8,851 bases of DNA from the IMG/VR virus record IMGVR_UViG_2713896791_000021. One strand, 5' to 3'. The DNA comes from a virus. Lineage: Duplodnaviria > Heunggongvirae > Uroviricota > Caudoviricetes. Position numbers and translations under genes: made by a program. Positions within the stretch are counted from its first letter, which is position 1. The number at the start of each line of letters is the position of its first letter. Shown here in pieces: positions 1,658-6,231 of this stretch. The notes beneath the pieces were generated by a model, which saw nothing but the letters and a program-made list of their open reading frames with translations, had not been told where the DNA came from and made no database searches.

Positions 1658-4075
1658 TTAAAAATCAGCCTGACTCGGGATCAGTTTTTTCCAGATAGCT
1701 GAAACGTATTTTGCCTGATAACGGGCGTCATCAAGTGCATTATGGCGCTCACCTTCGAATGGGATAGCAGTTCTGACATCGAAGTCTATGGCTTTCCCCA
1801 GCTCAACGATTGTGCGTACATCGCGATCGTTGTAGTAACGCCACGGGCAGGGGATCCCCTGCCGTTCGTATGAACGGCGCAAAATCGTGTTGTCGAAGTT
1901 GGCTCCATTTCCCCAGACCTGAACAAAAAATTCACCGGAGTTTTCGTCGATAAATTCCCGCAATTGTAACAGTGCATCATCTAACGGGATTTCATCGGTC
2001 ATAATGGCAGATTGCGCTTCGCGTGATTGCTTAAGCCACCATTTAATGGTGTCCCGATCAATGACTCCGCCAGCAGTTTCCAGATCGATAGTCTTACTAA
2101 ATTCCGGTCCCATATCTCCGGTTTGCGGATCGAAAAATATTGCACCTATTGAGATAATCGGGGCATCAGGATTTTTTCCCATGGTTTTAAGGTCGATCAT
2201 TAGATGGTCACACGTCCTGCTGGTGGATGTGATAACGTGATGACCGTTCACCGTAATTAAGGGATTTGCTGTCTCGCCTGTTTCATTATTGCCATTGGCA
2301 TGTTGATCGCCTTCGGTGCATTGCTTATTCGGGAGCACGGCATTTTCCATTTCCTCCGGATTTTTTTTCCGGGCTTCATCCTGGCTTTCTTCGTTGAATG
2401 TCTCTTGGTAGGTTGCGTCACCCATTACCGCTCCACAATCAGGGCAGTTGCCGCCATCGGTCTGACCACATGTGGTGCAAACTTTTTCTGGTTCTTGTTG
2501 CACTACTGGTTCAGGTTGTTTTGTTTTTGGCTCGTTTTGTAACGCATTTGGGCTGTTTTGTTCCGCTTTATCCTGATTCTGGTCATCATCATCGCGACTC
2601 TGGATCCCCTTCACCCATTTTGGATCATTCGGGTCGCTAATCCCTTCAACAAATTCTCCTCGAGAAGCAGCCAGTAATTTATCTGCATCGACAGGATTTT
2701 TGGGTGGAATGTTTTTCTTGGCTTCATGGAGTTCTGCACGCAGTTTCTGATATTTCGCATCAACAGAATTTATCTGTGGCTGAGCATCCATCGACTGCGT
2801 GTCCTGATTATGTTCAGTTGTATCCGGTTCCACTGCTTCAGTCGTTGCCTGTTCATCTGCCATTGCGCCAGATGGCTGCGGTTTTTCTTCATCATCCTGT
2901 TTTCCTTCTTTTGTTACACGCTGCGGCATCGGGGCAGAGGAGCGACCACAGGCAATATCCACGATTTCCGGATCAGGGGTGGCATGATCGGTTTCAGTCA
3001 GCACCTTATTCAGGTATTCGGTGACACGGTGGGGAGTAGCCTCTATACCAATTGGTGCTTCTTTCACGGACGCAACCACGATGGCGCGGGAGTAATCCTT
3101 GTGGCCCGGCATGGTGATGAATTTGCTGAAAAACACAGAAAATGGCGGTTTATTTTCAGCGATAATTTCCTCAATGCGTTTAGCGTGCGCGGGATGAAGG
3201 TTATAAATATCCACGTCCATTGAACGGGCCAGTACGCCAGTGGCTACGTCACGCGCCACTGACGCATCATCGTGGACAAAACCTTCGCCGCGATCGGTAA
3301 GAATGCCGCCGCCAGCGTTAGCGCCGGATGGCGTGCGGCTGATGCGTGAAACACGATTTCCTTTCATCCACTCTTTTGTAAGCAGACCGCGATCGGTGTA
3401 GTCAGCGCCCAGGTATGCTTCGATAAAAGAGGTCATCAGTCCCAGGTCCGAATTTACGGGGGCGGGGAAAACTTTGTCAGTGTCTCGCACCAGTTTGTAC
3501 AAATCCCGAAGCTCCAGCGGTTCGAGTTGCACTGCTTTATTTGAGATGGCCAGCGCGGTAACGGCGGGAAGTTTTTCATCCTGTGCGTTATGTAATGCGC
3601 GCAGTTTGTCCAGTGAAACGTGCGTGAGCGGTTTTTCGCTGTTGTGTTGCGCCAGCCAGCGAACAGGCAGAATCTGACCTGAAACCGGAAGAAGCATATT
3701 CTCCTCAATCTTAGCCATGTCTTCGCCGTTGACGTTGGTATTGTCAGTACTGGCTGGTTTGTCCGGAACAGAGGGCGCGATAAGTATCATTGTGATACCA
3801 TCTTCTCCGCCTTTTTCGTATCGGTTGCAGAATTCAGTATCAAACACACCTTCCGGTGGAAGGTCATTCACAACGGGTAAATGGACGCGGATGGGTTTTT
3901 TAAAATCCTCTTCGTCAAATCCGGCATCGTCCATTGCAGCAACACCACGTGATATTGCAACCGATAATTTTTTTGCTGTGCGCCAGTAAAAACCACCTTT
4001 AATCCCAAGGCGTTTTCTGACTTTGTCATTTTTGGCTTCGTAATATAGTGCAATTTCTTCTTTATCAGCGTTCAT
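1658..4075 (-). CDS. YdfE/RecE-like large prophage protein with C-terminal DEDDh-type 3'-5' exonuclease domain (Rv2179c-like) and an internal CxxC...CxxC zinc-ribbon motif
   Basis: 805-aa ORF with GAGG 7 nt upstream of ATG 4073-4075. The N-terminal ~400 aa resemble, from memory, the non-catalytic N-terminal part of Rac RecE / Qin YdfE. A central acidic, Q/P-rich low-complexity linker follows. [15 protein letters not shown] is a C-x2-C-x7-C-x2-C knuckle. The C-terminus (...[24 protein letters not shown]...GANFDNTIL...[10 protein letters not shown]) matches the Exo I/II/III layout of DnaQ-like exonucleases. Confidence 0.85.
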
Positions 4076-4550: not shown

Positions 4551-4590
4551 NNNNNNNNNNNNNNNNNNNNNNNNNNNNNNNNNNNNNNNN
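4551..4590. other. Assembly gap (run of 40 N)
   Basis: 40 consecutive N characters. The flanks are the 3' side of dicF and the 5' end of dicB, so the true length of the dicF-dicB spacer is unknown. Confidence 0.99.
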
Positions 4591-4607
4591 NNNNNNNNNN
4601 TCACAAA

Positions 4608-4664
4608 ATTCACTTTAAAAAGGGCGGCAGAGCAGTCACGGAGTAAAACTGATACCGCCAAATG
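4608..4664 (-). ncRNA. dicF: DicF small regulatory RNA (Hfq-dependent sRNA targeting ftsZ and other mRNAs)
   Basis: Minus-strand sequence UUUCUGGUGACAUUUGGCGGUAUCAGUUUUACUCCGUGACUGCUCUGCCGCCCUUUUU matches my recollection of DicF at all but about one position. It ends in a GC-rich stem (GGCGG...GCCGCC) plus U-run intrinsic terminator and sits between ydfC and dicB as in Qin. Confidence 0.8.
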
Positions 4665-4926
4665 TCACCAGAAAATTGATAACAGAGGGCGTTGTAGCGG
4701 GGTTGTCACTTAAGTGTATGGTCAACCTGACAACCCGGTGCATTTTCTGGAGCAATGGAGGAAACCCCAGCCATACTTACCGCCGCGCCATTTCGCGGAC
4801 TGCCACAACCGGAAGCGCACGGTCGACGAAAATTTAACGACAGGCTATCTATGAACCAGCTACCTCGCCGTACGCTTTCGCGTTGTGTGCCTGCTTTTAA
4901 CCACGTCAGGCGAGGTGGTTCCTGTT

Positions 4927-6195: not shown

Positions 6196-6231
6196 AGAAT
6201 AACCTAAGGCATATGGTCAAGATTTTTATGT
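6196..6231 (-). promoter_or_regulatory. Candidate dicB-operon promoter (PL analogue): -35 TTGACC, 18-bp spacer, -10 TAAATT, read on the minus strand
   Basis: Minus-strand TTGACC (plus 6226-6231) and TAAATT (plus 6202-6207) lie ~80 nt upstream of the ydfA start. The spacer contains CCTTAGG, the same motif that recurs in the dicA/dicC intergenic region. Confidence 0.35.

Follow-up and report, generated by a model that had tools for sequence, protein, structure and literature searches.

Lysine replaces the metal-binding glutamate of the Exo I motif in a DexA-like exonuclease gene of prophage origin, which lies within an 8,851-nucleotide stretch of tailed-phage DNA (hereafter the window). The explanation we regard as probable is that this residue, Lys630, marks a rare derived missense allele which encodes a dead or crippled nuclease, and which amounts to an ordinary loss-of-function polymorphism in a weakly selected prophage gene. 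A single GAA-to-AAA transition would have struck the metal-binding Exo I Glu of the DexA-like DEDDh domain, and the exchange of a carboxylate for a positively charged amine would leave the nuclease with little or no activity but with its fold, and probably its binding of nucleic acids, preserved. Weak selection on a prophage accessory gene would explain why such an allele is tolerated; the allele would have arisen once and then been passed on by recombination among lambdoid prophages residing at several integration sites.

Domain architecture and the Exo I site

The gene (Table 1) is the full-length counterpart of the one in the ydfE position of Qin-type prophages. A coding sequence 100% identical to it is annotated in 13 complete genomes, and RefSeq carries the same CDS in E. 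coli O103:H2 12009 under the label 'exonuclease'. Profile matches indicate that the encoded protein is composed of RecE-like N-terminal sequence of about 600 residues, an acidic linker, and a DEDDh domain in the place of the RecE nuclease domain. Residues 1-608 align with positions 1-603 of the 877-position NCBIfam RecE equivalog profile, NF007259, with a score of 1021.9 that falls below the cut-off of 1269, and residues 56-187 correspond to Pfam PF06630, the RecE N-terminal region. A RecE equivalog matches over its full length and above the cut-off, the C-terminal 5'-3' nuclease domain included, and the 805-aa protein does not. The CxxC...CxxC motif of the linker may possibly form a zinc ribbon.

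The C-terminal domain scores 221 bits against PF16473 (Rv2179c-like), for which the cut-off is 27 (E = 1.2e-65), and the match spans positions 2-177 of the 177-position profile. When the last 184 residues were modelled with AlphaFold2 (pLDDT 90, pTM 0.86), the best Foldseek match was T4 DexA (E = 2e-12), followed by RNase T (5e-09), REXO2, and oligoribonuclease (Orn), which places the domain in the DEDDh (DnaQ-like) class with its RNase H-like alpha/beta fold. The DnaQ-like/Rv2179c-like nature of this domain had been proposed in a preliminary description made from the DNA letters, and both the profile and the predicted fold bear it out. Overall, the protein is best classed as a member of PF16473 that is unlikely to be an active enzyme, and not as a RecE equivalog. 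No PADLOC 2023 model matches the 805-aa protein, and a literature search found no papers under the name PF16473.

The plus strand at the Exo I site reads tttaaggtc, the reverse complement of which, GAC CTT AAA, encodes Asp-Leu-Lys; counted from the ATG at 4075, these codons yield D628 and K630, precisely as the preliminary description had placed them. HMMER pairs the segment lmIDLKTMG with FIIDFETMG of T4 DexA (PDB 8KEL), and the alignments made with the single sequence and with a 37-sequence profile agree. For the best 150 representatives drawn from a library of 1.84 billion proteins (clustered at 50% identity), the same column holds Glu in 140, Lys in three, and a gap in seven, so that 143 cover the site. 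By these alignments, K630 occupies the Glu position in the D-x-E of Exo I, where the description had put it. Its view that Exo II and Exo III are intact likewise stands, with D728, H778, and D783 falling in invariant family columns. The catalytic pentad of the window protein is thus D-K-D-H-D, one short of the five residues of an active DEDDh exonuclease.

Codon 630 is GAA in each of the five close Glu alleles for which the DNA was read, and Lys630 is therefore a single G-to-A transition away, as had also been suggested. Four residues alone, K630, V767, A793, and K796, separate the window allele from its nearest Glu alleles. Since none of these introduces a new acidic residue, the lost carboxylate appears uncompensated.

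Table 1. Features of the prophage exonuclease gene in the window; positions count from the first letter of the window.
Feature	Position	Strand	Basis
Prophage "exonuclease" gene, 805 aa	1658..4075	-	ORF and annotated CDS WP_000990639.1 (RefSeq, O103:H2 12009)
RecE-like N-terminal region, ~608 residues	2252..4075	-	NCBIfam NF007259 and Pfam PF06630
CxxC...CxxC motif, residues 533-548, in acidic linker	2432..2479	-	Four Cys conserved in long homologues (alignment)
C-terminal DEDDh 3'-5' exonuclease domain, residues 624-795	1691..2206	-	PF16473 (Rv2179c-like)
Exo I motif, Asp628-Leu-Lys630 in place of Asp-x-Glu	2186..2194	-	HMMER alignments, family columns
Exo II motif GANFDNTIL, Asp728 intact	1880..1906	-	Family column D 146/149
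Exo III motif HNALDDA, His778 and Asp783 intact (DEDDh type)	1724..1744	-	Family columns H 143/144, D 141/144
Variant base, A on coding strand (T on +), G in Glu alleles; GAA to AAA	2188	-	Codon table of 12 alleles
Linked synonymous change, Ile640 ATT	2156	-	15/15 Lys alleles read; 0/6 Glu alleles read
Ala767Val	1775..1777	-	Only in the window's own lineage among alleles read
Gln796Lys	1688..1690	-	Only in the window's own lineage among alleles read; column variable across the wider family

Frequency, origin, and genomic context of the Lys allele

Near homologues of the window protein nearly always read MIDLETMG, with flanks identical to those of the window. Among the 413 family proteins collected, the full DEDHD pentad is present in 328, and 25 have a complete but non-canonical pentad. 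Within clusters formed at 90% identity, every member that could be read (13) of the cluster containing the window protein has Lys at the site, as do three of 15 in another cluster from E. coli and one of four in a cluster from Klebsiella.

Allele frequencies in 5,426 complete E. coli genomes were obtained with 55-mer queries centred on the variant base; because megablast needs an exact 28-mer as its seed, every match to a 55-mer must contain that base. The Lys 55-mer was found at 33 places in 33 genomes, and the Glu 55-mer (GAA) at 6,200 places in 3,948 genomes. About 0.5% of the gene copies in complete E. coli genomes thus carry Lys at a metal-binding Glu, a proportion of relevance to any work on DexA-like prophage exonucleases. 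The gene family as a whole is found in 4,721 of the 5,426 genomes, with up to nine copies per genome; in O103:H2 12009, six places match the gene, one of them with the Lys 55-mer. The Lys 55-mer occurs in none of 50,697 phage records, and the Glu 55-mer in 20. A single Lys-bearing protein sequence has been seen on 108 contigs.

Judged from these counts, Lys630 is a rare allele, and Glu is the ancestral and almost invariant state. The proposal that the whole prophage subfamily may carry Lys does not hold, given the family column, the ratio of 33 Lys to 6,200 Glu places, and the MIDLETMG of homologues. The opposite alternative, a Lys private to this element, is not quite right either: the allele is rare, occurring in 33 of the complete E. 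coli genomes, but has spread to prophages at four integration sites. Of the description's proposals as a whole, the placement of the residue survives, a family-wide Lys does not, and an inactive or mechanistically altered domain is the likely alternative.

The codon of Ile640 is ATT in all 15 Lys alleles read; it is ATC in the five close Glu alleles, and ATT in none of six Glu alleles. That all Lys alleles share this codon, one linked synonymous site set against six Glu alleles read as DNA, suggests a single origin of Lys630 in one G-to-A mutation, which would later have spread by recombination. The prophages that carry the Lys allele have different integrases and occupy four sites, namely rspB (the window and O103:H2 12009), potC, yccA/tusE, and ompW; because the flanking haplotypes differ across these four sites, recombination among lambdoid prophages appears to have moved the allele. 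Two Lys copies are disrupted by IS elements and one is truncated at its 5′ end, whereas 30 of the 33 complete genomes with the Lys allele have an uninterrupted frame. In two of the Lys-carrying genomes, an intact Glu copy is present at another site. An intact frame in 30 of 33 genomes, together with recombination into several prophage types, is the same pattern that a still-functional protein would be expected to leave.

The window is 99.98% identical to O103:H2 12009 to the left of a run of 50 N (4551-4600) and 99.1% identical to its right. The host element in that strain extends over about 24 kb from a truncated ydfJ to rspB, and encodes int, xis, the exonuclease, DUF1482, dicB, a frameshifted ydfC, ydfA, a cI-like repressor, cro, replication genes, paa, hokD, Q, a holin, IS fragments, and a frameshifted nleG7. 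Several of its genes are pseudogenes, several IS elements are present, and terminase, head, and tail genes are absent from the element in the annotation of O103:H2 12009. As such, it is a Qin-type cryptic remnant unable to make virions. The gene order int-xis-exo-DUF1482-dicB suggests that the exonuclease gene belongs to the early-left operon, which would normally be repressed in the lysogen; selection on exonuclease activity should therefore be weak.

Loss of function weighed against other readings

In Klenow fragment, DNA polymerase III epsilon, and RNase T, alanine at the Exo I Asp or Glu leaves a protein that folds and binds but has no activity. Two catalytic metals are coordinated by the DEDDh residues, as seen in RNase T (PMC8943300). 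Because hydrolysis depends on two Mg2+ ions held by the four acidic residues of the DEDDh set, a loss of activity is expected when one of them is replaced, and we infer from this two-metal mechanism that the Lys630 nuclease is likely catalytically dead or severely crippled.

Comparison of divergent Glu alleles gives a dN/dS of 0.10, and the domain is under purifying selection. Between the Lys alleles and the nearest Glu allele, the ratio is 0.14-0.30, slightly above the family baseline but not significantly so, with four to nine changes per class and with recombination mixing the Lys and Glu backgrounds. Sporadic active-site changes elsewhere in the family include D-to-N and H-to-Y, which, like E-to-K, are products of G:C-to-A:T transitions. 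All five of the independent non-Glu cases found at the Exo I site are Lys, which could reflect either mutation bias or a preference for Lys.

Three Lys-bearing family representatives, P0185, P0192, and P0246, have the pentads DKAHD, DKNHG, and DKNGD, and are substituted at three, one, and three of 14 non-catalytic conserved columns, respectively, where most family members have zero or one such substitution. The losses in P0192 fall preferentially at catalytic columns (3/5 vs. 1/14; Fisher p = 0.04). The further loss of catalytic and conserved residues in these three proteins is as expected of dead copies that keep decaying, and the pattern would fit mutation-driven inactivation followed by decay, not a maintained Lys subfamily. 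A search seeded with P0185 for a conserved Lys subfamily returned full-domain relatives of at most 74% identity and no newly found protein with Lys; the closest partial match, P0329, is 90% identical over 75%, with the Exo I site outside the match. No Lys clade conserved over time has emerged, because P0185 has no close Lys relatives and P0112 is the one Lys member of its four-member cluster.

Two other substitutions were considered as second hits specific to the Lys background, and both were rejected. W679R, at a position that is otherwise invariantly aromatic, is found at 549 places in 542 genomes, ST131 among them, mostly with Glu630, and G644D also occurs in the Glu-bearing cluster P0013. 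Since both occur with Glu, damaging-looking variants evidently segregate widely in this gene family, and neither marks a decay specific to Lys630.

An alternative that we think unlikely is that the product of the Lys allele, though non-catalytic, is being kept or was selected, or that inactivation is favoured because the nuclease harms its host. Conceivable roles for such a protein, if it still binds 3′ ends or oligomerizes, include protecting ends, acting as a decoy, and poisoning, as a dominant negative, the active paralogues that co-resident prophages make (cf. TREX1 D18N). This reading draws on the presence of the allele at four integration sites with the open reading frame intact in nearly all carriers (30/33), on an E-to-K change that has occurred independently at least five times (in the window lineage, Klebsiella P0112, P0185, P0192, and P0246), and on the concentration of the P0192 losses at catalytic columns. 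Furthermore, DexA-family enzymes form dimers and tetramers in which residues of a partner subunit enter the active site (PMC12153337); because these enzymes oligomerize, mixed oligomers are conceivable in genomes with up to nine copies. Against it stand the rarity of Lys at some 0.5% of copies, the lack of any Lys 55-mer among the 50,697 phage records, the equal damage to P0185 and P0246 at non-catalytic conserved columns, and the failure to find a Lys clade conserved over time in P0185 or P0112. The gene order, which points to an early-left operon normally repressed in the lysogen, and a mutation spectrum that matches plain G:C-to-A:T bias also speak against it.

The more specific proposal that the dead nuclease is retained for a function in prophage conflicts, as a dominant-negative or decoy protein that, for example, binds 3′ ends, or joins into assemblies with active paralogous exonucleases from co-resident prophages or incoming phages and poisons them, strikes us as quite improbable. 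Were it true, Klebsiella and the other lineages with recurrent Glu-to-Lys changes would have taken the same route repeatedly.

It is very improbable that the domain retains nuclease activity through a changed mechanism, in which the Lys amine replaces a metal ion or acts as the general base. The fold and the other four DEDDh residues are intact, which counts in its favour, but no conserved Lys-bearing subfamily has been found, the window allele lacks a compensating substitution, and the two-metal DEDDh mechanism requires the Exo I Glu. To our knowledge, an amine is unable to coordinate Mg2+. The chance that Lys630 is an artefact of sequencing, assembly, misaligned residues, or a wrong frame is practically negligible, because 33 independent complete genomes have the same codon and one Lys sequence recurs on 108 contigs, and because the frame is open over 805 codons and the identical residues flanking the site (IDL[E/K]TMG) leave the alignment no ambiguity.

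If Lys630 is, as we favour, a loss-of-function allele, its RefSeq labels, 'exonuclease' and '3'-5' exonuclease', call for caution, being attached to an allele that probably lacks such activity. The same allele would serve as a ready-made natural catalytic-dead control.

Comparison with known exonucleases

T4 DexA (8KEL/8KEN) is the best match to the window domain both in sequence (E = 2e-07 with the single sequence, 6e-16 with the profile) and in fold (TM 0.77 in Foldseek), and the two share the DEDDh fold. Their first motifs read FIIDFETMG in DexA and LMIDLKTMG in the window, so that DexA has Glu where the window has Lys630. Identity amounts to about 28% over 134 residues; DexA possesses extra loops and is a stand-alone protein of 227 aa. 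DexA W152, a residue assigned to 5hmC recognition, pairs with Tyr748, and the tetramer-forming D90 with Asp700, while D169, likewise assigned to 5hmC recognition, falls outside the aligned region; an HREX-type homologue would be expected to keep both 5hmC residues and to lack the Asp at D90. A figure legend in the DexA paper gives the catalytic residues as 'D7, E12, D119, D191, H186' (PMC12153337). By alignment, the D-x-E Glu of DexA is residue 9, and we treat the 'E12' of the legend as a labelling discrepancy.

The E. coli DexA homologue EcD, or HREX, is reported to digest 5hmC DNA and to give protection from T4 (Kang et al., NAR 2025, PMC12153337), showing that DexA-like genes can act as anti-phage nucleases. 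EcD and the window protein are both members of one superfamily, the bacterial DexA-like DEDDh exonucleases. EcD and the bacterial homologues examined with it keep every catalytic residue (PMC12153337), whereas the Exo I Glu of the window protein is Lys. EcD is a stand-alone enzyme, in contrast to the window protein, which is a fusion to a RecE N-terminal region encoded in a prophage early operon. Because the EcD cloning primer encodes MIDTET (PMC12153337), EcD belongs to another subfamily. When it was sought among the collected homologues, none had Ala at 77-79 in the column aligned with D90.

The window domain is also a strong member of the Pfam family PF16473, whose namesake is Rv2179c of Mycobacterium tuberculosis, described as an RNase T-like 3′ exoribonuclease (PMC10534295). 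Searches of PDB sequences with the window protein or the profile did not reach Rv2179c, which is too distant.

Residues 1-608 of the window protein match the first 600 positions of the equivalog model for RecE, which is exodeoxyribonuclease VIII of the Rac prophage, and the RecE gene likewise lies beside xis and int in a lambdoid early-left operon. The two proteins part at their C-termini, where RecE has a 5'-3' nuclease domain and the window protein a DEDDh 3'-5' domain. Neither recT nor bet accompanies the exonuclease gene in the window or in the gene order of O103:H2 12009.

Closest to the Lys630 allele in kind are altered DEDD exonucleases. Klenow D355A/E357A, Pol III epsilon D12A/E14A, the RNase T D23 and E25 alanine mutants, and TREX1 D18N are folded and bind substrate, yet are inactive, and TREX1 D18N is dominant negative in dimers. 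All of these were engineered or come from disease, and their biochemistry has been tested, whereas Lys630 is a natural Glu-to-Lys change known from sequence alone; what it shares with the Klenow, Pol III epsilon, RNase T, and TREX1 mutants is the loss of a metal-binding Exo I carboxylate.

Sequence variation in the DEDDh exonuclease domain

Lysine at the position equivalent to Lys630, where the D-x-E motif of Exo I ordinarily carries glutamate, recurs in other lineages, as represented by three homologous proteins of 752, 641, and 188 aa (P0185, P0192, and P0246, respectively). In these proteins the Exo II aspartate has also given way to alanine or asparagine, and in two of them either the aspartate or the histidine of Exo III is lost. 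Judged by the residues replaced, they are multi-hit dead forms of the DEDDh domain within otherwise intact open reading frames.

At residue 679, each of the 145 family representatives covering the column has an aromatic side chain. W679R (e.g., entries L002 and H184–H243) occurs at 549 places in 542 complete genomes, ST131 strains among them, and is accompanied in most places by the normal Glu630. P0121, a draft-genome protein found on 108 contigs, possesses an exonuclease domain identical to that of the window except for Arg679. Two further substitutions are listed below with the other mapped features.

Features mapped in the window, with strand and remarks
Feature	Position	Strand	Remarks
Q796K	1688–1690	−	Among the alleles read, confined to the window's own lineage
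A767V	1775–1777	−	Among the alleles read, confined to the window's own lineage
Trp679 codon	2039–2041	−	Trp in the window; W679R (TGG to AGG) in other alleles
CxxC-x8-CxxC motif	2432–2479	−	Exonuclease residues 533–548
Run of 50 N	4551–4600		Replaces 144 bases of O103:H2 12009 (L001 19382–19525)
DicF antisense sRNA	4622–4673	−	Rfam RF00039; bit score 77 (gathering score 48)

The legend to Figure 5 of PMC12153337 gives the catalytic residues of phage T4 exonuclease DexA as "D7, E12, …". Since sequence alignment places the D-x-E glutamate at DexA residue 9 (F4-I-I-D7-F-E9), the "E12" of that legend is probably a labelling slip.

The host prophage remnant

In the genome of E. coli O103:H2 12009, the host element (NC_013353.1, about 1,785,700–1,810,100; loci L001 and L022) is a Qin-type remnant of about 24 kb, bounded by a truncated ydfJ and by rspB, and devoid of virion genes. 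Its cargo includes the adhesin gene paa, hokD, and a frameshifted nleG7; an IS3 insertion occupies the lysis region, and the element holds several further pseudogenes. In the window, dicB is preceded by the DicF sRNA, the arrangement expected of a Qin-type prophage. Identity between the window and O103:H2 12009 is 99.98% to the left of the N run versus 99.1% to its right, which points to either a different strain of origin or a recombined immunity region.

Gene architecture and family distribution

The exonuclease gene family has matches in 4,721 of 5,426 complete E. coli genomes, at up to nine places per genome, and our literature search found no functional study of it. The gene at 1658–4075 (minus strand), near which neither recT nor bet is present, encodes a mosaic protein in which an acidic linker joins about 600 RecE-like N-terminal residues to a DEDDh domain of the DexA-like type. 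The cysteines of the CxxC-x8-CxxC motif in the linker are kept among long homologues, and the motif resembles a small zinc ribbon. Whereas RecE carries its own nuclease domain, this protein has the DexA-like DEDDh domain in its place.
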